The notes: generated by a model from the sequence alone, not told the origin. Counted from the first letter of the stretch, positions 13,401 through 42,058 are shown. The stretch: DNA of 64,000 nucleotides from Vicinamibacteria bacterium (GCA_019694155.1 JAIBCN010000230.1:3536-67535), one strand, 5' to 3'. Program-made: numbers and translations.

Positions 13401-13782
13401 TCCTGCGTTCTCTCTGTTCAATGCAACCGAACTCCAGCAGGACCTCGACAATGACGGCCTGAACCTGTTCGAGGAGTTCATGTTCGGAACGGACCCGCTT
13501 CTGGGAGACACCAACGGCAACGGGCTGTCGGATGGGGCGGAGTGTGCCCTGGGATTCGACGCGACCGCTCTGGACAGTGATGGAGACGGACTCACGAACG
13601 ACGCGGAGGTCGTTGCCGGAACGAACCCCTTCTCCGCGGACACCGACGGCGATGGGTACGCCGATGGAGTGGACCAGCTTCCGCTCGACAGCAGCCAACA
13701 CACGTTGTCCCCGACGCCCGGCGACACAACGCCGCCCGTGATCACGCTCATCAAGCCCACTGGGGCGATATCCATTCCGTAG
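7402..13782 (+). CDS. giant secreted multi-repeat surface protein (8 chitobiase/hexosaminidase-C-like domains, 7-blade RCC1 propeller, thrombospondin-3-like Ca-binding repeats)
   Basis: ATG 7402 is preceded by a GGAGGG Shine-Dalgarno and a signal peptide follows.
- Six copies of an unrecognised ~150-aa module (W.N.G...GA.STR.I.S.DGYVEF...GLS.GD.DGG..D.DYA...).
- Eight copies of the GATIYYTTDGTEPT signature (CHB_HEX_C-like).
- Seven RCC1 blades (..H.LAL..DGTVWAWG.N.YGQLG.G).
- C-terminal D.DNDG / D.DGDG Ca-binding repeats. Confidence 0.8.
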   Translation: MGASRFGAGVLCVRGSRRFRGVRAVTLAVGSWLVSGAPAVAQDAVRWQRPEGVEVGPGTVARAAGASKSGATSAQFITSGSGYASFTANEAAVARALGLAQTPLNDLPSIKFGIQLGSDGSVAIVEDGVPKPPIGTYGTGDQFTVAVEGASVVYRQNAVALYTSSLAPVYPLFAQVVLQENGSLGSCVMGGNLGEWAEWTNVGAHVAAAPGSLAREPFSPVALEGATSTRGITSGGGFVEFRLNSPTNYIYTGLSHGDTDGGAADIDFSFRIWSTSLTVIENGVTRGSFGTAGINDVLRIGVENGSIVYRKNGTVLYTSLTAPQFPLTIDSSVNAGSASAASVTLSGALSDVAAPPVSMSPSGGAYPSSQSVTLTSAPGQTIYYTLDGTEPGVMSPSVASGGAITVDSSARLRARTISSGLWPGTVRSAFYSIGAPPITEVVEWTNIGANVSALAGSISRDPNVGSPSVSEGAASTRGINSPDGYVEFRTGGYSSLGLSYGDNGGDASDVDYAVRFWGSGFYITENGTSLGYFGSTVAGDVFRVGVENGVVTYRKNGTLVYTSRIGPRFPLLVDASMHPAAGNATAVALSGHLVDTATAAVQMAPGGGAFGEAQSVTLTSGTGGATVRYTLDGSEPGPTSPSVANGGSVVVPSTGWLRARAFAPEMWPSASRRAFFAIGTAATTEVVEWANVGPNLSVQAGAVWRSPNVGSPSLNEGAVSTRAINSPDGYVEFKAGGYGYLGLSYGDADGGANDVDYAIQFWASGFYITENGVSRGYFGSLAAGDIVRVAVESGNVVYRRNGAQVYASGVTPRFPLLVDVSMHPAAGNATGVTISGHLVDVATLPPSFSLLPGDYATGQAVTVTDATPGAIIYYTTNGADPTTNDAVVANGGIVTIADSATLKARAFAPGLFASRVSSARYTIGLTKAIEAVTWTNIVNAGVSGNSIYKATSGAASDGGGVSRRAITSTDGYMEFTAGTPWGNRGAGLSFGDTDRNLADIDYAIFPNNSGTIQIYEGGVPRGAFGSYVSSDVLRVEVENGVVKYKKNGALLYASGIAPRYPLLVDTSLAIKGANFANVMISGALADVSVAPVTFSIPAGDYTEPQVVTLNAPTLGAAIYYTTNGADPTTSDTPIASGATVSVTGTMTLKARAFLAGLFASPTTAARYTIGLGSTTEAAAWTNTVNVTATGNSITKTSGGSSGFDAGAVSTRAIYSTDGYVELSAGTALSGVRYAGLSNGDTDVSYGDIDYAFCPAGSNGLQICEGGVVRGTFGSYLATDTLRVGVEQGVVTYRKNGAFLYASPIPPAYPLLVDTTLYYLSHSISNVFISGALVDSRLPAPTADPAAGAYVPPVNVSLTTVPGATIRYTTDGSTPTSASPLYGGTPIVLGASTSIKAIADAPGYLTSPVMTAAYVALAATPTITPNGGAFMDSVPVTLATATSGATVRYTLDGTEPTTASVAYSTPLLLVSTATLMAKAFHTTLAPSSTATALFTIAPTPPTLSPGSGTYTTSVSVAMSGPAGASIYYTTDGSTPTLLSTPYAGAVVLTETTTIKAAAFLAGGQSSAVSTGVYSIKVADPVLSPASGRWYTQQTIGVTTATPGATIYYTTDGTEPTTSSATVAGTGQLLIDRSMAVKFKAFKANTQPSATVHASYLITGQMAAGDYHTLALKADRTVWAWGTNNYGQVGDGSATGTVRSSPIQITALSDIVEIAAGRYSSYALKADGTVWAWGYNVSGELGDGSNTNRYLPVQVSGLTGVQAIGAGGSHGLAVLSDGTVRTWGLNNYGQLGRGNSTNSNVPVTATGLGSVRSVTGGDSHSLALRTDGTVAGWGWGGLGQLGNGGQNSNVPVTLSGVVATALAANGHSSFAIVGATRQLKAWGLNSNGQLGDGSTTNRLTPVLITSNVRAVAAGGSHMAMVGSDGRLQGSGNNGLRQLGDATTLSRTLPTRSRVSRFVVTLAEGYYHSLAVAPDGAVWGTGNNINAQLGLGNSVSPVLPTMIPAFSLFNATELQQDLDNDGLNLFEEFMFGTDPLLGDTNGNGLSDGAECALGFDATALDSDGDGLTNDAEVVAGTNPFSADTDGDGYADGVDQLPLDSSQHTLSPTPGDTTPPVITLIKPTGAISIP
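7984..12375 (+). repeat. intragenic tandem domain-repeat region (approx. 5 X-modules + 8 CHB_HEX_C-like modules; about 50-70% aa identity between copies)
   Basis: Periodic recurrence of VVEWTN.G and IYYTTDG motifs in the translated giant ORF. Confidence 0.6.
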
Positions 13783-13800
13783 GAAGGCTTCGACAGATCT

Positions 13801-16800
13801 ATGCTGAAACGAACGAGAGTTCTCTCTGCCTTGGTCCTAGCCAGCGCGCTGTCGTTGGCTCCGGCAGACGAGGTAGCCGCGCAAATCCAGGTGGACTGTA
13901 CGGTTGCGCCAATGTTCACGCCCAGCCCGAACTATTGCCTTGGTGTTCAATACGTGTTCCCACCGAACGCCTGTGGGTGCTCCAATCGGCTCTTCGCCAC
14001 GTCGTGCGGTGGGGGTGCGATTACGGGGACAACGCAGGGCGGCGTGGCCGGGTGTCTCCTTTCTTTGGCTTGCAACATCGTTGAAACGGAGACGCCCTGC
14101 AACGGCGTCCTTGAGCCCACGCGTCCTCCGAAGACGCCGAAGGTGCCCTGTCTGGATTGCGGTGAGCCCGTCAACGTGACGACGGGGACGATGTACTTCA
14201 CCCACCGCGACGCCACCATCGGACGCCTCTCGTTCACGCGTACCTTCAGCACGCAGCGATTGTCGGCAAATCGCTATGGGATGTTTGGGCCCGGCTGGAA
14301 CACCGACTTCGAAAAGCGGCTGAGGAGTCTGGGAACCGGCGTTCTCGAGTACCGCGACGCCGATGGCGAGCCCACGTATTTTCAGGATCGAGACCTCGAT
14401 GGGAACTTCGAACAGTATGTTCCTTTCGGAAAGGACTCTTGGATTCTGGACACCGGTGTGGGCTACCAGCTGGTGCGCCGCGCGGGCGGGCACGAAGACT
14501 ACTCGACCACCGGCGTGCTCCTTGCGGAGACGGACGCAGCGGGAACCACGACGACGTACGCCCGTGACGGCAGCGCCCGGCTGACTTCGGTGACCAGAGA
14601 GGGCCGATCGTTCACCCTCACCTATTCGGGCGCCAACCTCAAGCCCGCCACCCTTCAGGGACCGGGCGGCGAGACGCTTGCGACCTATACCTACGAAACG
14701 GCGTCGGGCCGACTTGCCGCGGTTGACTATCCGGAGAGCGCGGGCTATCGGTACACCTACACCTCGGACGGCAAGGTGAGCTTCGTTGACGACGCCGACG
14801 GACGGCCCAGTGAGGCTCACGAGTACGACGCGCAGGGGCGTGCCACCACCTCGGAGATCGGCGACGGCCGGCAGAAGCTCACCTTCTCATATGACACAGT
14901 GAACAAGAAGACGACCGTCACCGACGCGCTCGGGCGACAAACGATCTACGAGTTCCAACTCGTGAAGCACGCGCAGGTATTGAAGAAGCTCATAGGGCCA
15001 TGCGCCGGCGCATGCGGACCGGCGGATGAGACGCGCGAGTGGACGTATGACGCCAGCACCGGGACACTGACGACGATGAAGGACCAGGCGGGAAAGATCT
15101 GGAGCTACACCTATGATCCGGTGACCCTGGACATGCTGACGGAGACCGATCCCCTGGCGCAGGTCACGACCTATTCCTATGACGCGCAAGGGCGCATGCT
15201 CACGCGAACTGGGCCGGACGGAGCGGTCACGACCTACGTTCAGAGCGACGCTGGGCCGACCAGCATCACCCAGAAAGTGGCGGCTTCACCGCTGGTCACC
15301 CGAACGACGGCGATTGCGTACTACGCCACGGCGGATGCCAAAAACGGAAAGGTCCACACGATCCAGGATCCCCGGGGGAAGGTGACCACCATGGACTACG
15401 ACGCCACCAAGGGAGACCTCCTGTCGGTCACGGATCCGCTCGGCCACGCGACCACATTCGGCTACGACGAGTCGCCGAGCCCCGCTGGGAGGGGCTTGCG
15501 GACGAGTGTGACCGATGCCCTCGGCCATGTCACCAAGACGGTGTACGAAGGCCGCAACCGGGTGAAGAAAGTAGTCAATCACGACAACACGTTCACCGAG
15601 TTCGGATATGACGCGGCCGGACGCAGGTCGACGGTGACGGATCCCATGGGTCGGGTGACCCGATACATCTACGATCGATACGGGCGTCTCGATACGGTGG
15701 TGGATCCGATGAATCAGACCACGCGTTATTCATATGACCTGATGGGGAATCTGCTCACGCTCACGGATGCGAAGAGCCAGACGACGACGTTCGAGTATGA
15801 CAGCCACGACCGGGTGAAGAAGACAATCTACCCAGGCGGGGCGTATGAGACGTTCACGTACGACTCGCGGGGGAGGCTTGAGACGATGGTCGACCGGAAG
15901 AACGTGACCACGACCTACGCCTACGACGACCTCGGGAGGCTCTTGGGGAAGACGTTCTCGAACGACCCATCGAATACGCCGCCGTTCAGCTACACCTACG
16001 ATGCGGCGGGAAGGATGCTCACGGCCGCGAACGGGACGGATACCCTCACGTGGACCTACAACCTGGCGGGGGAGTTGCTGAGCGAGCAGAGCGTGAAGAA
16101 CGCCAGCACGGTCGCCTACACCTACGACGACGGCGGCAACCGGCTGTCGGTGAGCCTGGACGGGACGCTCTTCGTCACGTACGCCTACGACGACGCGTCG
16201 AGGCTCACGACGATCACCCGCGGATCGAACGTGTTCGGCTTCGCCTACGACAACGCAAACCGAAGAACCAGCATGAGTTATCCAAACGGAGTCGATACGA
16301 CGTACACGTACGACACGCTCAATCGCCTCACGAACCTCGCGGCGACGAAGACGAGCACCGGAACGCCGATCACGAACTTCGGCTACCAGTACGACGCCGC
16401 GGGCAACCGGACGCAGAAGTCCACCCTCGACTACACGGAGGACTATGGGTACGACCCCCTCTACCGCCTGACCCGCGCGGACCGCACGAACCCAGGCGCC
16501 ACCCCGCCGAATCAGTGGACGTGGAGCTACGACGCGGTGGGCAACCGGACGAGCGCCCAGAAGGACAACGAGGCGACCACGTCCACCCACAACGAGAAGA
16601 ACCAGCTGCTACAGACGAGCGGAGGGGGGAAGATGCTCTGGCGCGGGGTCCTGGACGAGCCCGGGACCGCGACGTTCAACGCGGCCTCTGCGTCGATCAA
16701 CGGTCAGCCCGCGAGGATGCTTGCGGGGAACGTGTTCGAAGCGACGCTGGACCTGCCCGCGGGAGCGAACACGGTGACGATTCAAGCGCAGGACGGGAGC

Positions 16801-17919
16801 GGGAATGTGTCGAGCAAGAGCTACTCGGTGAACGTGCTCGGCGTGCCCGCGACCTACACCTACGACGCGAACGGCAACCTCGCGACGAAGACGGAAGGCG
16901 CGGACGCGTGGGCCTATCAGTGGAACGCTCTGAATCAGCTGACCGCCGTCTCGAAGAACGGCGTGATGGTCGCGTCCTACGGATATGACCCCGACGGGCG
17001 GCGTGTTGAGAAGACCGGTCCCGGACGGCTTCTCGCATGGGTCTACGATGGCGAGGATGTCCTGCGCGAGACCTCGACGTCTAGCGGCGTCAATATCTAC
17101 CAATGGCATGTGCACGGCCACGGTATAGACGAACCGCTCGCGACGGAGACGCTCAACGGAGTGTCTTACAGACACGGTGATGCCATCAACGCGGACCGAC
17201 GTCTAACCGATGCAAGCGGCAATGTCCTCGGCGGAGTGTCTACGGACCCCTGGGGCAACGGGGACTCGTCCTCTATGGGACCTTATGGCTTCGGAGGGAG
17301 AGAATGGGATCCTGAGGCACAGATGCATTTCTTCAGAGCTCGGTGGTACGACCCAAAGATCGGGCGATTTATCTCAGAAGACCCAATTGGATCGAGGGGC
17401 GGCTCTAACCTATTCTCCTACGTCGATTCGTCACCCCCGAACTTCGTTGATTCGCTCGGCCTATTCAAGATGAGCGGCTTTCCGCGGGACGGAGTTGCGG
17501 TATCAAAAGTAATCGACGCGATGGCGGCCGTTCGCAGGAGACTGACTGAACAGCCCTGTTGTACGGCCGACGCGCCTGACATCCTGAACTACATGGAGAA
17601 CGTCGACGTCGACTTCAAGCCCGACCTAAACATCAAGCGACAGAAGAAAGGGCAGAAACTGGCCTGTGCAACTGCTCAAGACACGAATTTCTTCTTCTTC
17701 AAGGTCCGAAAGATCCACTTCGCCCCCGAATCGTTCGGCCCAGAATGCGCGGCGCTCTCTCTGGAATGCATGCTCGTGCATGAGTACACCCATTTCGTGA
17801 CGGGCTATTCCGATACTGACCCTCGATATCACGGCCGTGAGTACAAGAATCAATTCACGTGTTTCGGCTGCGGCGACGGCACGGTCCCGCCGGGCGAGGG
17901 ACCGCGGGGGAAAGAATGA
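13801..17919 (+). CDS. RHS/YD-repeat polymorphic toxin (Sec signal, no PAAR) with HExxH metallopeptidase-like C-terminal domain
   Basis: Signal peptide followed by a Cys-rich region and many YD repeats (TYTYDANGNL, YAYDDLGRL). The RHS core ends in RARWYDP..GRFISEDPIG..DSLGL. After the DPxGL boundary comes a ~150-aa lower-GC tip containing LVHEYTHF (HExxH). Confidence 0.85.
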   Translation: MLKRTRVLSALVLASALSLAPADEVAAQIQVDCTVAPMFTPSPNYCLGVQYVFPPNACGCSNRLFATSCGGGAITGTTQGGVAGCLLSLACNIVETETPCNGVLEPTRPPKTPKVPCLDCGEPVNVTTGTMYFTHRDATIGRLSFTRTFSTQRLSANRYGMFGPGWNTDFEKRLRSLGTGVLEYRDADGEPTYFQDRDLDGNFEQYVPFGKDSWILDTGVGYQLVRRAGGHEDYSTTGVLLAETDAAGTTTTYARDGSARLTSVTREGRSFTLTYSGANLKPATLQGPGGETLATYTYETASGRLAAVDYPESAGYRYTYTSDGKVSFVDDADGRPSEAHEYDAQGRATTSEIGDGRQKLTFSYDTVNKKTTVTDALGRQTIYEFQLVKHAQVLKKLIGPCAGACGPADETREWTYDASTGTLTTMKDQAGKIWSYTYDPVTLDMLTETDPLAQVTTYSYDAQGRMLTRTGPDGAVTTYVQSDAGPTSITQKVAASPLVTRTTAIAYYATADAKNGKVHTIQDPRGKVTTMDYDATKGDLLSVTDPLGHATTFGYDESPSPAGRGLRTSVTDALGHVTKTVYEGRNRVKKVVNHDNTFTEFGYDAAGRRSTVTDPMGRVTRYIYDRYGRLDTVVDPMNQTTRYSYDLMGNLLTLTDAKSQTTTFEYDSHDRVKKTIYPGGAYETFTYDSRGRLETMVDRKNVTTTYAYDDLGRLLGKTFSNDPSNTPPFSYTYDAAGRMLTAANGTDTLTWTYNLAGELLSEQSVKNASTVAYTYDDGGNRLSVSLDGTLFVTYAYDDASRLTTITRGSNVFGFAYDNANRRTSMSYPNGVDTTYTYDTLNRLTNLAATKTSTGTPITNFGYQYDAAGNRTQKSTLDYTEDYGYDPLYRLTRADRTNPGATPPNQWTWSYDAVGNRTSAQKDNEATTSTHNEKNQLLQTSGGGKMLWRGVLDEPGTATFNAASASINGQPARMLAGNVFEATLDLPAGANTVTIQAQDGSGNVSSKSYSVNVLGVPATYTYDANGNLATKTEGADAWAYQWNALNQLTAVSKNGVMVASYGYDPDGRRVEKTGPGRLLAWVYDGEDVLRETSTSSGVNIYQWHVHGHGIDEPLATETLNGVSYRHGDAINADRRLTDASGNVLGGVSTDPWGNGDSSSMGPYGFGGREWDPEAQMHFFRARWYDPKIGRFISEDPIGSRGGSNLFSYVDSSPPNFVDSLGLFKMSGFPRDGVAVSKVIDAMAAVRRRLTEQPCCTADAPDILNYMENVDVDFKPDLNIKRQKKGQKLACATAQDTNFFFFKVRKIHFAPESFGPECAALSLECMLVHEYTHFVTGYSDTDPRYHGREYKNQFTCFGCGDGTVPPGEGPRGKE
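16448..16935 (+). repeat. direct repeat (copy 1) shared with orphan rhs cassette at 22451..22935
   Basis: Nucleotide alignment is near-identical across about 480 nt (GGGTACGACCCCCTCTACCGCCTGACCCGCGCGGACCG... through ...GGAAGGCGCGGACGCGTGGG), with a short diverged patch around the two-thirds point. Confidence 0.8.
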
Positions 17920-18353
17920 ACTTTTCAGTGAGATGTCTCGCAATCGCTTTGCTTTTCCTGCCCGCGCCTTCGTCGGCGTTCACCTGCATGCCCATTCGGC
18001 TCCTAGTCGAGGTACCCTCCCCTGAAGCGGGCTGGGCTTTGGACTTCGTCGCGAAGCCCGACCGCAAGACCCTAAAGGTCGCCCGCGAAGATGCGACTTC
18101 CATGACGTACGCGGTCTTCTTCGACACCCTTCGTGTGCGACCAGGCAAGGCGCAGGACTGCTCATGGGAGCCTTCGTCTCTTGTCGTTCGAATTCGTCAC
18201 GAGGATGGGACGGTGCGGGAGGATCAGATTCCATTCCCTCAGGGCTTTGTCCGAATTGAGGGAACCGCCCGGAGCTTCCGAGCGACGCGGCGCGCCTCTC
18301 TCGCTGAAAAACCGCCCGGCCTCAGTAAGGGCCCAGAAACCCCTCGCCGTTGA
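17916..18353 (+). CDS. putative cognate immunity protein for the RHS HExxH toxin (secreted)
   Basis: ATGA overlap with the rhs stop (ATG 17916, TGA 17917-19). Signal peptide [21 protein letters not shown]. 145 aa with no recognisable domain. Confidence 0.5.
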
Positions 18354-18414
18354 AGTGAATCAGATGGGTCGGGGATTCGGCCACCCAAACCTCGGTCTCC
18401 CAGGCGATATCGGT

Positions 18415-18490
18415 CTTCGCGCATCCGGGCGTCCGTGGTCACGGCCCCTCGCGCCTGGAGGCCCGGGGCGGACTAGCGGGGCTACGGCCG
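18415..18490 (+). other. conserved intergenic element, copy 1 (paralogous copy at 20885..20960)
   Basis: About 70 nt, roughly 80-85% identical to copy 2: GCAkCCGGGCGTCCGTGGTC.CG..CC.TCGCGCCTGGAGGC.CGGGGCGG. The CCGGGCG / CGCCUGG potential stem is conserved. Lies 30 nt upstream of gene A. Confidence 0.3.
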
Positions 18491-18520
18491 TAGGAGGGCG
18501 AAAGGGATAGCCATGAGAGG

Positions 18521-19249
18521 GTGCGAACGCAGATGCTCCAACGGCGTCTGGTCTCGATCGAAATGAGCCGATCGAAGCGCAGAGCACGGACCATCCAGCG
18601 AGATCAGGACATCGTGGATCTGCTCCAGCGAAGTGCCGGCGGCGCGGCATCTCTGAGCGATAGAGTCCACTACGACAGAGAGATCCAGCGCCTGGGAGCA
18701 GAGCTTGCCACAGCGAATGAGGCGTTCCAGTCTGACCTCAAGGAAGAGTACCAGCTGCGCTTGCTCGTGGTCGAGGAAGAGGGAAACCTGCTGCTGGACA
18801 TCCGCGCCCTTGAAGACGAGAACTCCCGTCGGGCCGGGCGTCCCACGCACCTTGAGCAGGCACGAGATGCCCTGCGACGACTACCCGAGGTGCCTGTGGA
18901 GCTCATGCACGCCGTCCCTTTTTGGACCGAGACGGACCTCGGATCTCTTCGGCCTCTGCCATCGCCTCACGCCCTGAATCAATATGAAAGATCCGTCGGT
19001 CGGGCCATTGAACGCTTCGGGCTGATGTCGAGTTGCGTGGAAGACTTCATTGAAGCGACCAGACTCAGGGAGTCCTTGGGGCACGTACCGCCAGGGACGG
19101 CTGACAGGGCCAAGGTTGATTTCGCCACCAATCAGGCGCAGATTCGCGTTGGACTGGACCAGATGGCGTTGCTGCCTCCCAGAATGCGAGCGGACCGGGC
19201 AGCCAATCTCGCGAAGCGCGCAGCCCTCGTCGCAGCATTGAAGCTCTGA
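18521..19249 (+). CDS. hypothetical protein (gene A; upstream partner of HEPN-like protein)
   Basis: 242 aa and protein-like, with GC lower than the flanks. Its stop overlaps the start of the next gene (TGATG). Confidence 0.45.
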   Translation: MRTQMLQRRLVSIEMSRSKRRARTIQRDQDIVDLLQRSAGGAASLSDRVHYDREIQRLGAELATANEAFQSDLKEEYQLRLLVVEEEGNLLLDIRALEDENSRRAGRPTHLEQARDALRRLPEVPVELMHAVPFWTETDLGSLRPLPSPHALNQYERSVGRAIERFGLMSSCVEDFIEATRLRESLGHVPPGTADRAKVDFATNQAQIRVGLDQMALLPPRMRADRAANLAKRAALVAALKL

Positions 19250-19914
19250 TGGTGGTCCATCTGCGTCGCCGCGGCCACAGACTCGAAGGGCTGGTCAACC
19301 GGTTCTGTTGGCATATCGAGAAGACCCAGAAGTACGTGACTGTCGTCATGCCTGCGATTAAGCAGCAAGATGATCCGGGTGTCGAGCAGTACCTATTCCA
19401 GTCTCTGGCCTTGATGCTTCACTCCTACATGGAGGACTTTTTCAAGGGTGTCATCAGAACAGCGGCGCCAAATCGCCCGATGGAATTGCGTGAGCATATG
19501 AGCACGTACTATTCCGAGGACATCAAGGGATCTGGAACTCTTCACATTCTTGAGCTCGCCCGGATGGCCGCGAAGCGCGAGGTGTCGTTCGAAAGGAAGG
19601 CCGAACGACTGAAGCGGGTCTTTCGTGTGCTTTTCGACGCTGATCCGTTTTGCGACGCGGAAGCCGAGTCCGACTGCCTCGACCTAGTCGTGGTTCGAAA
19701 CACCATTACGCACGACGGGGCGTGGCCCGATGGAAGAGTCCACCAGAGCCTCTCCCGGAAAGACATCGTCGTCGAAACTACCCTCGTGAACGGGGCGAGC
19801 TTCTACACACTCCAGATTCCGCCGCAGTTCTTTGCGAACGTGCTGGCAGGCCTTGGCAGAAGCGTCCTCGATTTGGACCGGCAGCTCCGAGAACACCCGG
19901 TCTATCGAATATGA
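19249..19914 (+). CDS. HEPN-like domain protein (gene B; RNxxxHxG motif) - candidate RNase toxin / abortive-infection effector
   Basis: 221 aa. LDLVVVRNTITHDGAW matches the HEPN R-[NHQ]-x3-H-x-G signature. GC is markedly lower than the locus average. Translationally coupled to gene A. Confidence 0.4.
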   Translation: MVVHLRRRGHRLEGLVNRFCWHIEKTQKYVTVVMPAIKQQDDPGVEQYLFQSLALMLHSYMEDFFKGVIRTAAPNRPMELREHMSTYYSEDIKGSGTLHILELARMAAKREVSFERKAERLKRVFRVLFDADPFCDAEAESDCLDLVVVRNTITHDGAWPDGRVHQSLSRKDIVVETTLVNGASFYTLQIPPQFFANVLAGLGRSVLDLDRQLREHPVYRI

Positions 19915-19968
19915 CCTTGAAATCCCCGCAGCTGTCACAACAGAAGGGACCCCAGCCCAAGGAGAGGC

Positions 19969-20667
19969 GTGATGAGCCCAGATGCACCTCTGAATAGTCG
20001 CGACGTTGTCCTCCTGCCGTACCTGCGCCTTGTTGGCAGGCTCTCCGTGGGTCCTTGGGAAGTGATTCCGCGGCCCGAGCTGACGCGGGCTGACACCACG
20101 ACCCAGCAGGTGTTCGAGGTGGTGCCCAAGTATCTCGACCTCTATGCCATCCCGAAGCATCAACCAAGAGAGAAGTGGGGTTGCCTTGTGAAGAAGAAGG
20201 CCGTTCGCTTTGGCGACTTCGTGGAGCGGCACGAGCTGGTGCCAGTACACCATGCGATTCTGGTTGGTGTGCTCGCCAGCAACCCAGAAGCGAACGCGAG
20301 GAACCCCGGTCGCTCAATGTCGACGTCAGAGAGCTGCATGATGTTCGGCCACCCGATCAGCGAGGAAGGTCGAGTCTCGGTCGAAAACGGGGCGATGTTC
20401 CACCAGGTTGTCGTTGCCGGGCTCAGGCTGGGCGACGATGACGGCTACGTCAGCCACCCCACGTCGCTCTGCGCTCCTTGGGACGGCAACCAGGTTGACG
20501 AAGCTCTTGCAGCCGCGACGCATACTGCTTTGACGCTGGGCACGGAAGGCGCCCGGCGCCTGTCGACCGCGATTGAATGGCTCCAAACGGTCTGGATGAA
20601 TACCGAGGCTGTAAGTTGGGACGTGCGCGTCATGGCACTGAAGGCAGCCTGGGTGAGAGCCACGTGA
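19969..20667 (+). CDS. hypothetical protein (gene C)
   Basis: 232 aa with coding-like codon bias and lower GC than the flanks. No recognisable domain. Confidence 0.4.
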   Translation: MMSPDAPLNSRDVVLLPYLRLVGRLSVGPWEVIPRPELTRADTTTQQVFEVVPKYLDLYAIPKHQPREKWGCLVKKKAVRFGDFVERHELVPVHHAILVGVLASNPEANARNPGRSMSTSESCMMFGHPISEEGRVSVENGAMFHQVVVAGLRLGDDDGYVSHPTSLCAPWDGNQVDEALAAATHTALTLGTEGARRLSTAIEWLQTVWMNTEAVSWDVRVMALKAAWVRAT

Positions 20668-20884
20668 TGATCGCTCAAAGGCGGTTGTTGGAAGTCATTC
20701 GGAAGCTGGTCTAGACGGGCGCGATGATCGGAACGTCCGCCACCGCGACCTGGGCCAGCAGGGCAAGCTGTGCCTGCACCCGTTCTCTGGAGATTGCCCC
20801 GTGTTGAGTAGCGGGTGGGTCGGTGAGCGAGTGGTCGCACACGCGTGGTACGGGGGCGCGCCGTCGTTTGTGGCCTTGCACATG

Positions 20885-20960
20885 CGGGCTGTCGAGCCTC
20901 GCGCAGCCGGGCGTCCGTGGTCGCGATCCATCGCGCCTGGAGGCTCGGGGCGGCTCGGCG
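20885..20960 (+). other. conserved intergenic element, copy 2 (see 18415..18490)
   Basis: Aligned to copy 1. Located 220 nt downstream of gene C and 220 nt upstream of gene D. Confidence 0.3.
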
Positions 20961-21176
20961 GGGCTGTGACTGACGGCGTGCGGCTGAGTTGCCTTTCCGA
21001 GGACGCGAGTGGCCTGCTCGGGATGCTGGACTTCACTACGCGCCGCGTCAAGGCTGCTCCGCTGCGCTCCGCACTTTTTTGCTTCGCAAAAAAGCCTTCG
21101 GGCCTGGACACGGCCCTACGTGAAGTCGTGATGAGAGGGCGCAGGCCACTTTCGGCCTGCGGAAAGGCAACCTCTC

Positions 21177-21716
21177 ATGTACACGTCAACCACACAGCCC
21201 CGCAACGCAGGCCCCGAGCCAACGCCGCGGCTTTCGGGTTCTCCCTCGTTCGGCCTTCGCGTCCGCGTGGCACTCGATACCACGCAGCAGTACCTGTTCG
21301 GCAACGATGGTCCGTCGGTCCTCACTCGTCTGGCCGAGGAACTCTGCATTCAGATGGCACGCATCGTCGTCTGCGACTTTCGCATTCACTCTCGGCTGAA
21401 CCGCACGGTTCCGGCAGTTCTGCGGAACGTCCGTCTGAGCTTCTGGTCCTGCGCTCGGCGGGCGGCACTCGATACCTCGGCAGCTCTTGCGGCGGGCGCC
21501 AAGCGTCGCGTGGTCCAGTCGGATCTGGCTATCCAGGCGGCGAATCTCGCTCTGCGCATCGCGGATCTCTGCGAGAAGGCGGAGCAGTCGGTTCGTTCCG
21601 AGAAGCAGATCGTGGAGAACTACGATCGGGCTCGGCGTTCGGAGCTTTCGGCGATGCATCGCGATCGACGGGAGCAGGAAGCTCGGCGTCGTGCCGAAGC
21701 CGAGGAGTCGCTCTAA
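21177..21716 (+). CDS. hypothetical protein (gene D), translationally coupled to Avd-like gene
   Basis: 179 aa. The frame-0 translation is protein-like, whereas the overlapping long frame (ORF 20801..22231) is R/S/G-rich junk upstream of 21716. Stop overlaps the next ATG (TAATG). Confidence 0.4.
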   Translation: MYTSTTQPRNAGPEPTPRLSGSPSFGLRVRVALDTTQQYLFGNDGPSVLTRLAEELCIQMARIVVCDFRIHSRLNRTVPAVLRNVRLSFWSCARRAALDTSAALAAGAKRRVVQSDLAIQAANLALRIADLCEKAEQSVRSEKQIVENYDRARRSELSAMHRDRREQEARRRAEAEESL

Positions 21717-22231
21717 TGAGCGCTGAACTCTCACTTCAGCAGGCCGGGGCTTCCGCCCCGGCCGTTTCCGCTTCGCAGTCGGCCGCTGGGCCTGGTGCCG
21801 AGCTTGCAGCAGTCCTCGCCGGTTCGGCCGCGGCGGAGTCCGCCGCTCGCGAGGACTCGATCCTCCTCGACGCTGAGAAGCTCGAGGTCTACGCGTTGGC
21901 CTTGGAGCTTCACGCATTCGCCGCATCGAAGGTCCCCACGCTGAGCCGTGTCCTCAAGGACCAGCTTGAGCGTGCCAGCCTCAGCGTGGTCTTGAACATC
22001 GCAGAGGGCGGGGGCCGTCGAAGCCGCAAGGACAAGTCGCGGCACTACACGTACGCGCGAGGCAGCGCCACGGAGGTTGCTGCCTGCTTCGACGTGCTCA
22101 AGATCCGGAAGCTCGCTCCGGCGTCCGAGTGCGCTCGTGGCCGAACCCTCGCGCTGCGCGTGGTCCAGATGCTCACGAAGCTCTGCGCATCACTTCAGCC
22201 GAAGTCCACCGAAGCGCAGGAGGCGGCTTGA
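21716..22231 (+). CDS. four-helix-bundle protein (23S rRNA intervening-sequence / Avd-like family)
   Basis: C-terminal 120 aa (LEVYALALELHAFA..LKDQLERASLSVVLNIAEGGGRRSRKDKSRHYTYARGSATEVAACFDVLKIRKL) matches the four-helix-bundle, DGR-Avd-like family. The N-terminal Ala/Ser-rich extension leaves the start uncertain. Confidence 0.55.
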   Translation: MSAELSLQQAGASAPAVSASQSAAGPGAELAAVLAGSAAAESAAREDSILLDAEKLEVYALALELHAFAASKVPTLSRVLKDQLERASLSVVLNIAEGGGRRSRKDKSRHYTYARGSATEVAACFDVLKIRKLAPASECARGRTLALRVVQMLTKLCASLQPKSTEAQEAA

Positions 22232-22431
22232 GCCTCACGCAGTCGTGTTTCAACGCTCGTCAGGCTAAGGCAGGACTGCGTTCGTCTCTCAAGAAGGTGG
22301 CGGTCGGCCAGCCCTTTTCGTGGGCCGAACGCGTTTGTCGTCAATCCGGCCTTCGGCCGGAACGGAGACGGACGGGACACGGGGCACGTTGCACGGCCGA
22401 GGTGGTGCGGCTGGTGACCTCGCCTTCGGCT

Positions 22432-23868
22432 TCGTCACCCAGCCACACCCTCGGGTACGACCCCCTCTACCGCCTGACCCGCGCGGACCGCACGAACCCA
22501 GGCGCCACCCCGCCGAATCAGTGGACGTGGAGCTACGACGCGGTGGGCAACCGGACGAGCGCCCAGAAGGACAACGAGGCGACCACGTCCACCCACAACG
22601 AGAAGAACCAGCTGCTACAGACGAGCGGAGGGGGGAAGATGCTCTGGCGCGGAACGTTGAGCGAGCCCGGGACGGCGACGTTTAGCGCAGCCTCGGCGTC
22701 GATCAACGGCCAGCCCGCGAGGATGCTTGCGGGGAACGTGTTCGAAGCGACGCTGGATCTGCCCGCGGGAGCGAACACGGTGACGATTCAAGCGCAGGAC
22801 GGGAGCGGGAATGTGTCGAGCAAGAGCTACACGGTGAACGTGCTCGGCTCTCCCGCGACCTACACCTACGACGCGAACGGCAACCTCGCGACGAAGACGG
22901 AAGGCGCGGACGCGTGGGTCTACACCTGGAACGCGCTGAATCAGCTGATTGCGGTAACGAAGAACGGCGTGACGCAGGCGACGTATGCCTACGACCCTGC
23001 CGGAAGGCGCGTTCAGAGATCGGCGAGCGTGACCACGACTTGGACCTACGACGACGAAGACGTCATTCGCCAGGCTGCTGGTCCCGTGGTATCGCTTGTT
23101 CTTCACGGGCCCGGCGTCGACGAGACGCTTGCAACTGAGGCACAGGGGATTACGACGTTCCTGCAAGTGGACGGCCTCGGATCCATTGTTCGTCATACGT
23201 CAACGTCTGGCGCCGTCGCGCAATCCGTTGGGTACGATGCTTGGGGCGTTGCCACTAGCACGGCCCCAGACACGTATGGTTTCACGGGAAGAGAGTGGGA
23301 CGCCGATGTGGCTCTCTATTACCTCCGCGCACGGTGGTACGACCCGAGGAGCGGCGGTTTCCTTGGGCCGGACCCGTCGATGACCCCTGGCCTTCCCGGA
23401 CACTACCTTTATGTGGGTGCCAACCCAACGGGATTCAGGGATCCGTCGGGACTGAAGCGCGAAGCGACGTGGATCGACCCGCCGGGCATCAAGGACTTCT
23501 CAGCTACGTATCAAGGGCCGATATATCCGGGGGAGTATTGGTCCCTCTTCCCGCCACAGGTCGGACTATATGGCGAATGGTGGCTCTTCAAAGGGAATGT
23601 CTCAGGGACAGTGAAATGCACGGATACTGACAAGTGTGCTGGGGATCAAACGAAGATCAAGAGTGTCAAGCTTCCGATCTGGAAGACCATTGGCATCGGG
23701 GTTGGAATGACAATGTATCCGTACATTCACTACATGAAGCGAGGCAAGCACATCATTGACGCCTTCCAGGAGGCCTACGACGCCTACTACAATTACTGGG
23801 TCCAGATCGCGAAGAACATGCTTGAAGATCCGATGACGTGGTGTCGAGTCCTCGGGGGGTTCAACTGA
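22432..23868 (+). CDS. orphan rhs C-terminal cassette (5'-truncated RHS core + alternative lower-GC C-terminal toxin domain)
   Basis: Homology to the main rhs begins at LGYDPLYRLTRADRT. The RHS core ends RARWYDPRSGGFLGPDP..DPSGL and is followed by a ~135-aa tip at about 50% GC with no motif recognised. There is no N-terminal signal or repeats. The upstream in-frame part of ORF 22129.. is probably non-coding. Confidence 0.7.
   Translation, partial: SSPSHTLGYDPLYRLTRADRTNPGATPPNQWTWSYDAVGNRTSAQKDNEATTSTHNEKNQLLQTSGGGKMLWRGTLSEPGTATFSAASASINGQPARMLAGNVFEATLDLPAGANTVTIQAQDGSGNVSSKSYTVNVLGSPATYTYDANGNLATKTEGADAWVYTWNALNQLIAVTKNGVTQATYAYDPAGRRVQRSASVTTTWTYDDEDVIRQAAGPVVSLVLHGPGVDETLATEAQGITTFLQVDGLGSIVRHTSTSGAVAQSVGYDAWGVATSTAPDTYGFTGREWDADVALYYLRARWYDPRSGGFLGPDPSMTPGLPGHYLYVGANPTGFRDPSGLKREATWIDPPGIKDFSATYQGPIYPGEYWSLFPPQVGLYGEWWLFKGNVSGTVKCTDTDKCAGDQTKIKSVKLPIWKTIGIGVGMTMYPYIHYMKRGKHIIDAFQEAYDAYYNYWVQIAKNMLEDPMTWCRVLGGFN
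22451..22935 (+). repeat. direct repeat (copy 2) of rhs segment 16448..16935
   Basis: See copy 1. Identity decays gradually 3' of about 22935 while protein-level RHS-core similarity continues. Confidence 0.8.
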
Positions 23869-23869
23869 C

Positions 23870-24223
23870 ATGCGCGGGCAGGGACTAGTCAAGGTTGGAC
23901 TTGGAGTGGCCTTGCTCGTCGCGTTTGGCGTCGTAGGCACCCTGGCCGTTCTCGCGCTCGACGGTCACTTTGCCGTCGCTCGACCCGAGCTGGAATGCGA
24001 GATCGTCAGGCGGATTGCGGCGAGCAGCACACTGGATGGAACCCCCATTTCGTCAGTCTGGGAGATCAAGGTCGCGCAAGGGCGAGTGGAGAAGTTCACG
24101 TTTCAAGGGTCTCCACCCTTGCACGCTGGCGACCGCGTCAAGGTCCGCTACGTCGAGGCGAGGCTCTCCGGAGAGAAGGGCGTCACCTCCTATTACATCA
24201 TCCAAAGACACCCGGTGCCGTAG
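23870..24223 (+). CDS. putative immunity protein for orphan toxin (membrane-anchored)
   Basis: Starts 2 nt after the orphan stop. 117 aa with N-terminal TM helix VGLGVALLVAFGVVGTLAVLAL. Confidence 0.45.
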   Translation: MRGQGLVKVGLGVALLVAFGVVGTLAVLALDGHFAVARPELECEIVRRIAASSTLDGTPISSVWEIKVAQGRVEKFTFQGSPPLHAGDRVKVRYVEARLSGEKGVTSYYIIQRHPVP

Positions 24224-24508
24224 ATTGTGCGTCGAGCGGTCCCGCGTCGGTTGACCTAGAGTGAGGCGCAATGACTGCCAAGGCGAAGAAACCCGAGCCA
24301 CTCTTCAACGTTGGTGATCCAGGGATTCTCCGGACGGGGAACTGACAAATGGGAGTTGTAGGGCGAATCCGTACGCCCCATTAGGCGAGTTTGGACCCGC
24401 AGAGACCAGACGCCGCGACGCTCTCCGCCGACCTGTTTGCCTTCTGAGCCGAGTTCTGGCTGCTCGAGCGCAGCTCCGCCCAGGGTCACTCGTTCGGAGA
24501 CCGTCGGC

Positions 24509-25735
24509 CTATGCGGGCTGGAGGTAGGGAAATCGACGCGCGACCCGATCGAGCCACGCGACGCGCATTGGCGGCGGTCCGTGATTGATGCCGGGTCTTG
24601 CGCGTGGCGGCTGGATGGCGGTCGCGGCCTTCGGTTGGACTCCGGCCAAACGCTCAGCCGGAGTGGCGCCATCGAGAGAGTAGATCGGTCGCTGGTAGGT
24701 GTAGTAGTTCAGGGCCGCGGCGAGCCGCTCTTCGAAGTCTGACAGCGTGAGCGGCTGCGCGAGGGGAAGGCCCATCAGCCAATCGAGAGTTCTCCAGAAG
24801 CGCTCGATGAGCCCGGTGATCGTGGTCCTGCCCGGGCTGCCGAGGCGTATCCGCGAACCCAGGCGCTTGGCTGCCATTCTGAAGGCGCCCTTGAACTCCG
24901 GTCCTCCGTCTATGGCGACGTACCGCGGCCTTCCCCAGGCTGCGGCTACGCGCTTCAGCAGCCTTGCTGCCGCGTCCGCGGTCGGAGGCGTCGCCGAGGC
25001 GTGGATGCCGAGTGGAGCCTGGGAGTAGGCGTCAAGGACCCCAGTGACCCAGAACTTCCGGAAGCCGAGGAAGCTCTTCACCTCGTGAGAGTCGAGGATG
25101 AAGACATGGCCAACGAACGTCGCCTTGAGGGGCATGCGGCTCGAGGAATCCGGAAGGTCGGGTGAGGCTTCCGTGGGTTCGCTCTTGAGGACGCTCTCCA
25201 CGTAGCTCTTCGAGACCTTCCATCCACCACGCGCGACGTGGGCCGCGATCTGATGAGCGCGTCCGAGGTGGAGGCGTTCCGCCAGGCGCACCAGCGCGCG
25301 GACGACATCGGCGTATCGGCGGATGGGCGGGTCGGGTTGGATGTCGGGGCCGACGGTTTGCCGCGCGGGATCGGCGGCGTCTTCCCACCGTGTGAAGGTG
25401 GTGGGAGTGACGACGAACTGAGCGGCGGCCTCCTCGATCGACCAGCCCATTGTCTGACGCAACTGGAGGGCCTTGAAGCGCGCAGGGCCGGAGTAATGGG
25501 GACGCTTCTTGGGAGCGATCTTCCGAAGCCGCGTCTGGAACGTCTCGACCATCTCGGTGAGGATTCCGTTCCGGGTTTCGAGTTCCTTGATGCGGGCAAG
25601 GGCCATCGTGAGCGCATCATCAGAGAGGCGGAGGCGCCGGAGTTGAGCGTCGAGGGCACAGCCCAGGATGCGAACGGCTCTCAAAGTCGCCTTGGACGCA
25701 ATCTTCTCGGCAGCCTCGTGAATGCGCAGGTTCAT
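24509..25735 (-). CDS. DDE transposase (integrase-core rve domain; IS481/IS3-superfamily-like)
   Basis: Start MNLRIHEAAEKIA. N-terminal HTH with coiled coil, and C-terminal rve/rve_3-like YTYQRPIYSLDGATPAERL. Confidence 0.7.
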   Translation of the reverse strand: MNLRIHEAAEKIASKATLRAVRILGCALDAQLRRLRLSDDALTMALARIKELETRNGILTEMVETFQTRLRKIAPKKRPHYSGPARFKALQLRQTMGWSIEEAAAQFVVTPTTFTRWEDAADPARQTVGPDIQPDPPIRRYADVVRALVRLAERLHLGRAHQIAAHVARGGWKVSKSYVESVLKSEPTEASPDLPDSSSRMPLKATFVGHVFILDSHEVKSFLGFRKFWVTGVLDAYSQAPLGIHASATPPTADAAARLLKRVAAAWGRPRYVAIDGGPEFKGAFRMAAKRLGSRIRLGSPGRTTITGLIERFWRTLDWLMGLPLAQPLTLSDFEERLAAALNYYTYQRPIYSLDGATPAERLAGVQPKAATAIQPPRARPGINHGPPPMRVAWLDRVARRFPYLQPA

Positions 25736-26122
25736 GAGGCGAGCATGGCGGACCGAGCGTGCCTGGCCCTCAGGCGCGGTACCGCGGGGCGCGAGGACCC
25801 CGCGGGCGGAGGCCAAAGCACCGTTCCCGAACGGAGTGGGGCCCAAGGCTCCTCTGAGTCAAAGCGGGGCGGTCAGCCCCGCTCCATTCATTGAAGACGA
25901 CATTGGGCCCCACGTATGTGAGGGAACGCCCGGGTGCTTTGGCCGCAGCATGACCACGCGGCCGCGGTGTTCACGGATGGCCCGCGGTCGGCGCGGTGGC
26001 TTTCGCGGGATTGCTTCGTCGCACTACCGACGGAATGGCTCCTCGCAATGACGGGGGGTGCCTCTCCCCGAAGCGCGGAGGAGGCTGGGCGGTGCGGTTC
26101 GCAATGACGTGGGCGGGGCGTT

Positions 26123-26900
26123 TCACCTCACCGAGGAGCGTCGCTCGCGAAAGTGCTCGCGCCATTCGGCGGAGCGGTAGCGGATGACCTTGAGCAGCGC
26201 GAGATCGACTCGCTTCGCGTCGCCGAGGGCTTCGGCGTCGTAGAGGTCGAAGCCGTCGGGCTGGAAGGAGAGGGTCAGGTACTGGCCGTATTGAACCGCG
26301 TTCTGCATGTCCTCGAAGCTCGGGACGTCGCCGCCGGTCCAGTTGCCGTTCGCGTCGTGGGGGGCGTGGGTGTGCCAGCCTCCCACGTAGCGGCCATGCC
26401 AGTCGGTGCTGGTGATGAGGGCCAGTTGTTCCTCGGGGCCGAGGGAGTAGGTGGGGGCGGCGTTTTGGGCCACGGTGAGAAGGGCGCGCCTCACTTCCTC
26501 TGCGCTGCCGGGTGAGCCGAGGCGGAAGCGCGCCACTGCGACTTTGATGAGGCCGTGGGTGTCGACCTTGGCGACTTCGGCCGCGCGGGTTTCGCACAGC
26601 GAGGCGATGGCTTTGGGGTCTCCGGCGACTTTGACGAGGTCCTGGACCGTCGACCACCGCGGGTCGCGGGCCTCGACTAGGCGCAGCTCCTTGTCGATGG
26701 TCGCTTCGCCTCCGGTTTCCGGGGTGAGCCACTTGGGACCGATCCGCACGCCGCGCTCGATCATGGCCTCGAAGAGCGCGCGGATCCGATCGACGGAGGC
26801 GGGTGAGAGAGCGGCCGCGCGGAGCTGGCGTGGGTGATGGGGTTGTTCTTCGGGGCGGCGAGGCCATGCCACTGGTCGAGGCGCGAGAGGGTTCGCGCCA
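26123..26900 (-). pseudogene. fragment (C-terminal ~260 aa) paralogous to secreted protein gene 29076..30146, fused in frame to a truncated transposase
   Basis: About 88% nt identity to 29121..29880. Homology breaks, with a frameshift, near 26860-26900. Confidence 0.5.
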
Positions 26901-27039
26901 TGGTGGCTGAGACTTTGATCGCACCGGCGGCCTGGCGGGATTGCTTCGTCGGGCGGTCTACCGAACCCTCCTCGCAATGATGGAGGAGTGTCTCGTTGAT
27001 TCCTTGCCCCGACCGACATCGCGACCGATGGCATGGGCG

Positions 27040-27787
27040 GGCTCGCCGAGGCGTGGATGCCGAGTGGAGCCTGCGAGTAGGCGTCGAAAACGCCAGTGAT
27101 GAAGAACTTCCGGAAGCCGAGGAAGTTCTTCACCTCGTGAGAGTCGAGGATGAAGACATGGCCAACGAACCTGGCCTTGAGGGGCATGCGGCTCGATGAA
27201 TCGGGCAGGTCGGGCGAGGCCTCCTCGGGCTCGCTTCTGAGCACGCTCTCGACGTAGCTCTTGGAGATCTTCCAGCCGCCACGCGCGACGTGAGCGGCGA
27301 TCTGGTGGGCGCGTCTCATGCCGAGGCGCTCGGCAAGGCGCACCAAATTGCGAACAACGTCGGCATACCGCCGGATGGGCGGGTCGGTTTGGATGTCGGG
27401 TCCCACGGTTTGTCGAGCGGGGTCGGCGGCGTCCTCCCACCGCGTGAAGGTGGTGGGAGTGACGAGGAATTGAGCGGCGGCTTCCTCGATCGACCAGCCC
27501 ATAGTCTGGCGCAGCTGGAGAGCCCTGAACCGCGCGGGGCCGGAGTAGTGGGGACGCTTCTTGGGAGCGATCTTCCGAAGCCGCGTCTGGAACGTCTCGA
27601 CCATCTCGGTGAGGATTCCGTTCCGGGCTTCGAGTTCCTTGATTCGGGCGACGGCCTGCGTGAGCGCGTCATCGGAGATGCGGAGGCGACGGAGTTGTGA
27701 ATCGAGGACCCGGGCGAGGATCCGAACGGCTCCGAGTGTCGCTCTTGTGGCGATGGCCTCGGCCGCATCGTGCAGGCGCAGGTTCAT
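27040..27787 (-). pseudogene. truncated transposase paralog (N-terminal ~250 aa only; catalytic rve core missing)
   Basis: Start MNLRLHDAAEAIA. About 80-85% nt identity to 24985..25735 and ends abruptly at about 27040. Part of chimeric ORF 26123..27931. Confidence 0.55.
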
Positions 27788-27878
27788 GAGGAGAGCACCC
27801 CCTTTTGCAGGTTCCCGAAGGGGATCGGCTCGCAAGGAAGACCGAGCGCATTTCGCCAAGGACGGAATGGCTCCGCCC

Positions 27879-29024
27879 TCAGAGATCCTCCGCGATCCTC
27901 GACGCCGCAAGCGCCGTGATGTCCTTCGCAAGCGGGAAGGTCTCTACTCCCGCGTGGATGATGTACGCATGGCGCAGCCCGAGCACGGAGATTGCCGATC
28001 GGAGGGACTTCGTGACTTGCGGCGCGCTCGTGCGCTTCGCCTCGAACCCGATGCGCCTCGATCCTCTGATCCAGAGCATGTCGAGCTCGGCGCCGCCATG
28101 AGTGGCCCAGAAGAACGTCTCCGAGGAGTCGGCCTCGACCCGGGCCGCCGCCTGCTGAAGCACGAATCCTTCCCACGAGGCGCCGAGGAGAGGGTGGCGC
28201 TCGAGGTCGCGGAGCGTCGGGATTCCCAGGAGGGCGTGAAGAAGGCCGGAGTCGCGGATGAGAACCTTCGGCGCTTTGACCTGGCGACGGTCGATGTTGA
28301 CGTGCCAGGGCTTGAGGGTGCGCACCACGAGCGCCTTTTCCAGGATCTCGAGGTAATGGCCCACCGTTCCCTCACTGACCGCGAGCGAGCGGGCCAGCTC
28401 GGCCGCGTTCCAGGTGCGCGCGTGGTAGTGGGCGAGCATGCTCCAGAAACGCGAGAGGCGCGGCGCTTCGATGCGGATGCCGAGCTGGGGGATGTCCCGC
28501 TCGATGAATGTGCGGATGAACGCCCGTCGCCATTCCAGGCTTCGCGCTTCGGAAGGCGCCGCGTAGCTTCGCGGAAAGCCGCCGCGGAGCCAGAGACGAT
28601 TGAGGTGCGGCGCGCCCACGTCGCGGAGACGCAGCCCTTCGAGGGTGTGGTAGGCGATGCGTCCGGCGAGGCTCTCCGACGACTGCCGGAGCAGCTCTGG
28701 CGATGCGCTCCCCAGGATGAGAAAGCGGGCGGGCAGGGGGTGGCGGTCGGCGAGGACGCGGAGGGTTTCGAAAAGGCCCGGGCGGCGCTGGATCTCGTCG
28801 AGGATCACAAGGCCGCGAAGGGGCTTGAGGGCAAGGCCCGGGTCCGAGAGCCGGGCGAGGTCGTCCGGATCCTCGAGGTCGAAGCTCTCCACCGAGCGGC
28901 TGGCCGCCGCGATCTGGCGGGCCAGGGTTGTCTTGCCCGATTGGCGCGGTCCCAGGAGAGCCACGACGGGGAAGTGCCCGAGAAGTCGGCGAACGGCAGA
29001 GATCTCGTCAAGCCGCGGAATCAC
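27879..29024 (-). CDS. AAA+ ATPase (DUF4143 family)
   Basis: Walker A LLGPRQSGKTTLARQ, Walker B ILDEIQR, and the C-terminal DUF4143-like region. Confidence 0.7.
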   Translation of the reverse strand: MIPRLDEISAVRRLLGHFPVVALLGPRQSGKTTLARQIAAASRSVESFDLEDPDDLARLSDPGLALKPLRGLVILDEIQRRPGLFETLRVLADRHPLPARFLILGSASPELLRQSSESLAGRIAYHTLEGLRLRDVGAPHLNRLWLRGGFPRSYAAPSEARSLEWRRAFIRTFIERDIPQLGIRIEAPRLSRFWSMLAHYHARTWNAAELARSLAVSEGTVGHYLEILEKALVVRTLKPWHVNIDRRQVKAPKVLIRDSGLLHALLGIPTLRDLERHPLLGASWEGFVLQQAAARVEADSSETFFWATHGGAELDMLWIRGSRRIGFEAKRTSAPQVTKSLRSAISVLGLRHAYIIHAGVETFPLAKDITALAASRIAEDL

Positions 29025-37047: not shown

Positions 37048-37113
37048 ACCCATAAGAAGCAGTGTGTTGCCGGCCGGGGCAGCGCGGCACGCGGGTTGCC
37101 CGTCTAGCGGCCT

Positions 37114-42022: not shown

Positions 42023-42058
42023 GACCCTCATCAATAAAGACTTCTGGGGTCGGGCGGG

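Follow-up and report, generated by a model that had tools for sequence, protein, structure and literature searches.

A probable orphan rhs-CT/rhsI module with a rare toxin tip shares a 565-bp repeat with a full-length rhs gene in a Vicinamibacteria contig

The window analyzed here is a 64,000-nucleotide stretch of a contig from a Vicinamibacteria bacterium (GCA_019694155.1 JAIBCN010000230.1:3536-67535), and the element under study is a truncated rhs fragment with its own downstream gene (22453–24223) that lies behind a full-length rhs gene on the same strand. The full-length gene, called main rhs below, occupies 13801–17919 (+) and encodes 1372 residues. The protein begins with a Sec-type signal peptide and DUF6531, continues with RHS repeats in 12 stretches (PF05593, E 9e-70; TIGR01643, E 3e-51), and reaches an Rhs-associated core (TIGR03696, E 1e-19, residues 1149–1221) that reads RARWYDPKIGRFISEDP...DSLGL and is followed by a 151-residue tip. 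Multiple RHS/YD repeats and a PxxxxDPxGL-type core with a variable tip identify main rhs as an Rhs/YD-repeat polymorphic toxin gene. Its N terminus, a Sec-type signal peptide and then DUF6531, does not place it among the enterobacterial Rhs proteins delivered by a type VI secretion system (T6SS). The main tip bears an HEYTH motif and has no family match. The ATG of the candidate immunity gene for this tip (17916–18353, +) and the stop codon of rhs overlap (ATGA); the gene encodes a signal-peptide-like N terminus and also has no family match. On the upstream side, a 2126-residue protein with eight CHB_HEX_C domains, RCC1 repeats, and a TSP3 repeat is encoded on the same strand at 7402–13782, and its gene ends 19 nt before the rhs start. 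The two genes may be co-transcribed.

The second rhs element (22453–23868, +) has no N terminus. Its Rhs homology starts abruptly at the equivalent of residue 883 of the 1372 residues of the main protein. The shell/core fragment (22453–23454, +, 334 residues) contains one RHS repeat, an immunoglobulin (Ig)-like insert with a weak match to Glucodextran_B, and an Rhs_assc_core domain (TIGR03696, E 7e-18) running from RARWYDP to DPSGL, the end of which reads RARWYDPRSGGFLGPDP...DPSGL. A 137-residue tip and its stop codon follow (23455–23868, +), and one base after this stop begins an open reading frame (ORF) of 117 residues (23870–24223, +) that encodes one N-terminal transmembrane (TM) helix and a beta-rich domain. 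This ORF is the candidate cognate immunity gene. The 1416-nt frame of the fragment is intact, with no stop and no frameshift. The frame remains open upstream to 22129 (mechanical ORF 22129–23868) and holds in-frame GTG codons at 22402, 22405, and 22414; the translation upstream of 22453 is low in complexity and has no Rhs similarity. The public gene call P0001 (484 residues) begins at GTG 22414. The closest genome match to the Rhs fragment is a Vicinamibacteria metagenome-assembled genome (MAG; L002, 52%). A first-pass annotation, made from the DNA alone, had described this element as a high-GC RHS core that ends in an unrelated tip of about 50% GC and is followed by a membrane-anchored small ORF. 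Each part of that description holds. The core has a GC content of 0.62 and retains TIGR03696, the tip has a GC content of 0.53 and no blastp similarity to the main tip, and the product of 23870–24223 starts with a hydrophobic helix. The arrangement is that of an orphan rhs-CT/rhsI module: a 5′-truncated fragment downstream of a full-length gene in the same orientation, a DPxGL core with an unrelated tip, and a co-varying immunity ORF immediately downstream. Because the orphan has no secretion or shell-forming N terminus, it presumably cannot be delivered alone.

The main gene and the orphan share a direct repeat. Copy A (16447–17011, +) encodes residues 883–1070 of the main protein, including the Ig-like insert, and copy B (22453–23017, +) is the 5′ part of the orphan. 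The copies align without gaps over 565 nt at 92.0% identity (blastn, 817 bits, E 0.0), and blastn found no second pair of this sort within the window. They are offset by 6006 nt (3 × 2002) and are in frame with each other. Identity is concentrated at the 5′ end, where an exact run of 200 nt (16447–16646) opens the repeat. Measured from that end, identity is 100% over 180 nt, 95.7% over 300 nt, 96.0% over 450 nt, 95.1% over 490 nt, and 92.0% over the full length. Comparison in 30-nt windows revealed a sharp 5′ edge, where matches rise from 7/30 to 30/30 at 22453/16447, stay at 30/30 for six windows, and then range from 23 to 30 of 30. The 3′ edge is gradual, with identity decaying across 22900–23017 and gone beyond about 23017. 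The copies differ at 45 nucleotides, 23 of them at codon position 3, and at 15 of the 188 encoded residues. The Ig-like segment of the Rhs shell lies within the repeat (16678–16833, main residues 960–1011, and 22684–22839), about 210 residues ahead of the DPxGL motif, and is also present in L002, L082, L086, and L087. The first-pass annotation had paired 22451–22935 with 16448–16935 as a near-identical repeat of about 480 bp. The near-identity is confirmed, but the register was a few bases off, and 480 bp corresponds to the part above 95% identity and not to the whole repeat.

Two related metagenome contigs, L086 and L087, were found with a degenerate DNA pattern for GYDPLYRLTRADRTNPGATPPNQWTW, and together they cover both rhs positions of the locus. 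L086 carries a main-type rhs gene that is 84% identical to window 15845–16963. Its tip, a third and unrelated one, bears an HENLH motif and is accompanied by an immunity candidate with a signal peptide and by one additional gene. The next block of L086 is 91% identical to window 20804–22277 and contains one copy of a 67-nt repeat, a gene for a 179-residue protein, and a four-helix-bundle (4HB) gene. L087 holds the end of the 4HB gene, an inserted gene for a 383-residue protein, and then an orphan (1245–2864) that has the same upstream junction as the orphan of the window (window 22373–22452) and 33 nt more rhs sequence (QKSTLDYTEDY). The tip of the L087 orphan is a fourth one, again unrelated, whose immunity candidate resembles a lipoprotein, and the right end of the contig is a transposase region 86% identical to window 24332–25779. 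There is no pairwise similarity among the four tips or among the four immunity candidates of the window, L086, and L087, and the flanks are 84–93% identical. Thus, the main and orphan slots both hold different cassettes in close relatives.

Orphan arrays are also found farther afield, as the first-pass annotation had expected of related genomes. Two or more Rhs C-terminal cores stand in tandem on the same strand in 19 of 80 more distant related Rhs loci, and the orphans in those arrays mostly start near the equivalent of main residue 1017–1060. Three orphans start earlier and close together, at the equivalent of main residue 883 in the window, about 872 in L087, and about 875 in L082 (1700–3474). 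Only about 3 codons or fewer separate the starts of the L082 and L087 orphans (STLD and QKSTLD), and the window orphan begins 8–11 codons further in. L082 is from a distant MAG whose sequence is 42% identical to the main protein, and its orphan follows an unrelated gene, the contig carrying no rhs upstream of it. These near-equal starts hint that the cassette, in its truncated form, has long been transferable as a unit.

The pattern of identity between the copies and their relatives bears on how the repeat has behaved. In 60-nt windows, the main gene and the orphan of the window are 100% identical over 16464–16643, where each is 83–98% identical to the main gene of L086 and the orphan of L087. 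Further along, the main gene of the window is 100% identical to the L087 orphan in 16704–16763 and 16824–16883, and the window orphan is 98% identical to the main gene of L086 in 16884–16943. Because L087 has the same orphan junction, the duplication that gave rise to main and orphan copies predates the split of these lineages. The paralogues are identical where the orthologues differ by 7–17%, which argues that, once the lineages had split, gene conversion or a comparable exchange took place. From this mosaic, and from the different tips that occupy equivalent slots in relatives, we infer past gene conversion between the two copies and swapping of complete cassettes among strains. The gapless alignment and the 6006-nt spacing also have a consequence for the coding frame, since a computed crossover product is a stop-free chimera of 1353 residues that carries the orphan tip on the main protein. 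Such a crossover would fuse main residues 1–882 in frame to the orphan part and would leave the orphan immunity gene directly downstream. It could proceed by deletion, or after tandem duplication as proposed for Salmonella (PMC3967940). Without a preceding duplication, the locus would lose the main tip, the immunity gene of that tip, and five more genes. The mosaic identity and the in-frame spacing lend indirect support to the earlier proposal that the repeat allows toxin switching by homologous recombination.

The direction of past exchange is a separate matter. The first-pass annotation had proposed that an incoming core and tip displaced the ancestral 3′ end of main rhs, which survives as the orphan, and had pointed to a lower GC content in the last 900 nt or so of the main gene. 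The drop in GC is present (0.58/0.57 compared to 0.62–0.67 upstream) and the arrangement fits displacement, but the main 3′ end is not established as the incomer. The 5′ part of the main gene has a GC content at third codon positions (GC3) of 0.80, and both copies of the repeat have 0.88–0.89. It then falls equally in both genes, to 0.64 in the last ~150 core codons of the main gene and 0.65 in those of the orphan, with tips at 0.70 and 0.71. Over the final ~160 residues of the core, six cassettes compared with one another are 39–52% identical in every case. This equidistance suggests that each tip travels with its own diverged core end. Neither GC3 nor the identity of the core 3′ ends discriminates the main from the orphan cassette, and both were set aside as means of polarizing the displacement.

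The orphan tip belongs to a rare family. A word-indexed search with the tip alone returned no homologue; an exhaustive HMMER search of 1.84 billion representative proteins did find them, 15 in number, and a profile search of a 5.8-billion-cluster collection added a few more, for a total of about 20 members. The tip lies directly after a PxxxxDPxGL-type Rhs core in every homologue that has N-terminal sequence. P0006 is a complete protein of 600 residues that consists of a signal peptide, SpvB, RHS, and this tip. It is the only complete carrier found; contig ends truncate the remaining homologues, or else these are orphan-like, stand-alone fragments. The closest relative of the window tip, P0002, is 40% identical and is encoded in L082, an NCBI MAG contig. 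P0011 is a truncated remnant of a tip of this family that follows a full-length Rhs protein in L088. The family alignment has five invariant residues (C55, C61, G82, P126, and C130), none of them acidic, basic, or histidine; the window tip retains every invariant or near-invariant position. Profile searches against PDB sequences and Pfam were empty, and no Pfam, NCBIfam, or PDB entry was matched. Structure prediction, a check put forward in the first-pass annotation, gave an AlphaFold2 model (pLDDT 78, pTM 0.63) with three long beta-hairpins and C-terminal helices.

The genes that follow these tips encode small membrane proteins. The product of 23870–24223 is identical to NCBI MBX7187483.1 from a Vicinamibacteria MAG save for the start site. 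The gene after the L082 tip encodes 119 residues with the same build and is homologous to it (29% identity, E 6e-9). A second family, of about 110–130 residues with several hydrophobic segments, follows the tip in seven further distinct loci (L083, L084, L085, L088, L089, L091/L092, and L093) and has no relationship to the protein with one TM helix encoded in the window and in L082. In L090, neither of the called downstream genes matches this second family. A small membrane protein is thus encoded next in every tip locus with intact downstream sequence, L090 excepted. That a membrane protein follows nearly every tip of the family supports the view that the tip and its downstream gene are a cognate toxin/immunity pair, and one toxin family would then pair with two candidate immunity families. 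The membrane-protein pairing and the invariant cysteines suggest action at the envelope. With three invariant cysteines, no invariant charged residue, a predicted hairpin and helix fold, and small membrane proteins next door, the orphan tip is probably an envelope- or membrane-acting, nonenzymatic toxin. A broader proposal can be offered tentatively. In it, the tip founds an undescribed family of Rhs-borne antibacterial toxins that act on the envelope or membrane and are neutralized by either of two unrelated small membrane-protein families, and the truncated cassette is a long-lived unit of horizontal transfer. As a separate observation, all four immunity candidates of the window (17916–18353 and 23870–24223), L086 (2020–2529), and L087 (2771–3253) have a signal peptide, a TM anchor, or a lipobox-like sequence. 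These export and anchor signals suggest that the Sec-signal Rhs lineage delivers envelope-acting toxins.

We consider it very likely that 22453–24223 is an orphan rhs-CT/rhsI module beside an rhs gene of full length and that the repeat is a recombination substrate for tip exchange. Several points weigh against this interpretation and against the proposed mode of action. Only two related contigs were recovered, L086 and L087, and both are parental in type, with no recombinant junction. The main immunity gene is 4.1 kb from the orphan with five other genes between them, a spacing unlike that of the classic tightly packed arrays. A scan of the predicted genes through 46720 of the 64-kb window turned up no PAAR, VgrG, or T6SS family. 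The contig is apparently from a short-read MAG, and an assembler that collapses near-identical repeats could have inflated the exact run of 200 nt. Confidence in the tip model is moderate, a Foldseek search with it against PDB and BFVD gave no significant structural neighbor (best E 0.025), and the membrane-acting mode is drawn from genomic context.

Assembly is also at the root of one alternative, a chimeric contig in which two strains were joined through the repeat. The exact run of 200 nt exceeds common assembler k-mers, and a Logan contig, L001 (SRR1027651), breaks inside the repeat, starting at 22889. That same contig is 100% identical to window 22889–25020, however, and L087 independently has the order 4HB gene, orphan fragment, transposase with the same upstream junction. 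L086 independently has the order main rhs, tip and immunity gene, 4HB block, and no linear path other than that of the window seems able to accommodate the two flanks of each copy. We regard a chimera as highly improbable. Still more remote is the idea that the copies are the template and variable repeats of a diversity-generating retroelement (DGR). The idea was prompted by the Avd-like 4HB gene upstream of the orphan (PF05635/TIGR02436, ~21851–22231), since the DGR accessory protein Avd belongs to the four-helix-bundle fold family. The 45 mismatches are spread across all base pairs and are not adenine-specific, the flanking genes scanned (through 46720) include no reverse transcriptase, and the repeat is 565 nt long and lies in the shell instead of a C-terminal variable domain. 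The DGR explanation was rejected on the mismatch spectrum and on the lack of a reverse transcriptase domain in these genes.

Two other explanations concern what the orphan does now. It could be a functionless, decaying relic of a past tip replacement, with the repeat a remnant of the old core. The orphan has no N terminus and no obvious promoter, it lacks 33 nt of 5′ rhs sequence that L087 retains, and truncated tip remnants do occur elsewhere (P0011 after a full-length Rhs, L088). Decay is difficult to reconcile with an intact frame of 1416 nt, a tip that keeps all of its invariant residues, and an intact immunity ORF one base after the tip stop. The repeat, moreover, has been homogenized recently with the main gene and is not decaying, and we judge a relic to be improbable. 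Somewhat less doubtful, although still unlikely, is that the orphan is translated independently, with an internal start codon (GTG 22402, 22405, or 22414, or further downstream) as an addiction or toxin-antitoxin-like module that stabilizes the locus, a role compatible with recombination. Salmonella rhs orphans have been described as units of this type (PMC7043789). The public gene call at GTG 22414 has a GAGG 11 nt upstream, the orphan ORF of L087 has an ATG that overlaps the stop codon of the upstream gene, and L082 and L084 contain stand-alone fragments of 433–462 residues with their own start codons. Set against these starts, no sigma-70-like promoter was found in 17700–24700, a weak test for Acidobacteriota, and the leader (22373–22452) differs from that of L087 at 7 of 28 codons and is seemingly unconstrained. 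The membrane-anchored immunity protein and the three invariant cysteines also suggest an extracytoplasmic target, one that a fragment made in the cytoplasm and lacking a signal peptide would not reach.

The genes between the main cassette and the orphan include an apparent insertion. Two 67-nt direct repeats, at 18417–18483 (+) and 20899–20965 (+), are 85% identical and bracket a 2.4-kb insert whose left edge is the first copy; L086 has a single copy at the equivalent place. The insert carries three cargo genes of unknown function (18521–20667, +; 242, 221, and 232 residues) that are absent from L086. A HEPN RiboL-PSP match at 19249–19914 is weak (E 0.007) and below the cut-off. Rfam gave no match in 17800–24600, the 67-nt repeat folds no better than shuffled sequences, and PADLOC gave no match for the intervening genes or the immunity candidates. 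The gene for the conserved 179-residue protein (21177–21716, +) has no family match, and 22 of its 29 substitutions relative to L086 are at codon position 3. The 4HB gene (21851–22231, start approximate, +) is of the 23S rRNA intervening sequence type and is the conserved upstream neighbor of the orphan in the comparisons with L086 and L087; 33 of its 40 substitutions relative to L086 are at codon position 3. The two genes are conserved as a pair ahead of the orphan, and these substitution patterns indicate that both are under purifying selection. The right edge of the locus is an rve-type integrase/transposase-like gene (24509–25846, −), which is also found after the L087 orphan. A second, paralogous rve/helix-turn-helix transposase-like gene lies at 26123–27931 (−), and 24991–25745 is 86% identical to 27043–27797. 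The genes of the rhs region (7402–24223) have GC3 values of 0.70–0.79 compared to 0.80–0.91 in flanking genes, which fits a horizontally acquired island. At 35884–43258, four group-1 glycosyltransferase genes beside a MatE-like transporter gene are probably a polysaccharide biosynthesis locus; they are unrelated to the orphan.

The locus is of an ordinary and well-understood kind, and the rare, undescribed tip family is its unusual part. The current understanding of how Rhs loci diversify is unchanged by it. What it adds is an extension of the main/orphan Rhs architecture with a repeat of about 0.5 kb to a Sec-signal Rhs in uncultured Vicinamibacteria (Acidobacteriota), where the related contigs show directly that both slots carry different toxin/immunity pairs in close relatives. 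The tip family of about 20 members, without family annotation and paired with small membrane proteins, is a candidate new envelope-targeting toxin.

One comparison is with the immunity proteins of pore-forming colicins and of membrane-targeting T6SS effectors, since toxin genes of the tip family precede genes for small integral inner-membrane proteins of ~110–130 residues. The tip itself has no sequence or structural similarity to any known pore-former, and the analogy comes from genomic context. The closer comparison is with the orphan rhs-CT/rhsI and cdiA-CT/cdiI modules defined by Poole et al. 2011 (PMC3150448) and the polymorphic toxin cassettes of Zhang et al. 2012 (PMC3482391). The tip family differs from those modules in having no Pfam, NCBIfam, or PDB match and a single complete carrier, P0006. 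The shared features are a PxxxxDPxGL motif that demarcates the tip, a small immunity ORF next to it, homologous flanks around tip and immunity genes that are unrelated between strains, and a length of retained upstream rhs sequence that varies by strain (33 nt more in L087). The nearest precedent is the rhs-main (STM0291) and rhs-CT-orphan (STM0292) pair of Salmonella Typhimurium LT2 (Koskiniemi et al. 2014, PMC3967940), in which recombination makes use of a shared 522-bp stretch with 95% identity. The present locus differs from that pair in its acidobacterial host, its Sec signal peptide with no T6SS gene among the predicted genes scanned through 46720, the five unrelated genes, over 4.1 kb, that separate the orphan from the main immunity gene, and the reading of recombination from sequence mosaics. 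In both, a 5′-truncated fragment lies downstream of a complete rhs gene, in the same orientation, and has another tip together with an immunity gene of its own. The direct repeats, which provide a route to a chimera in each case, are similar in size and identity, at 522 bp and 95% in Salmonella and 565 bp and 92%, or 450 bp and 96%, here.

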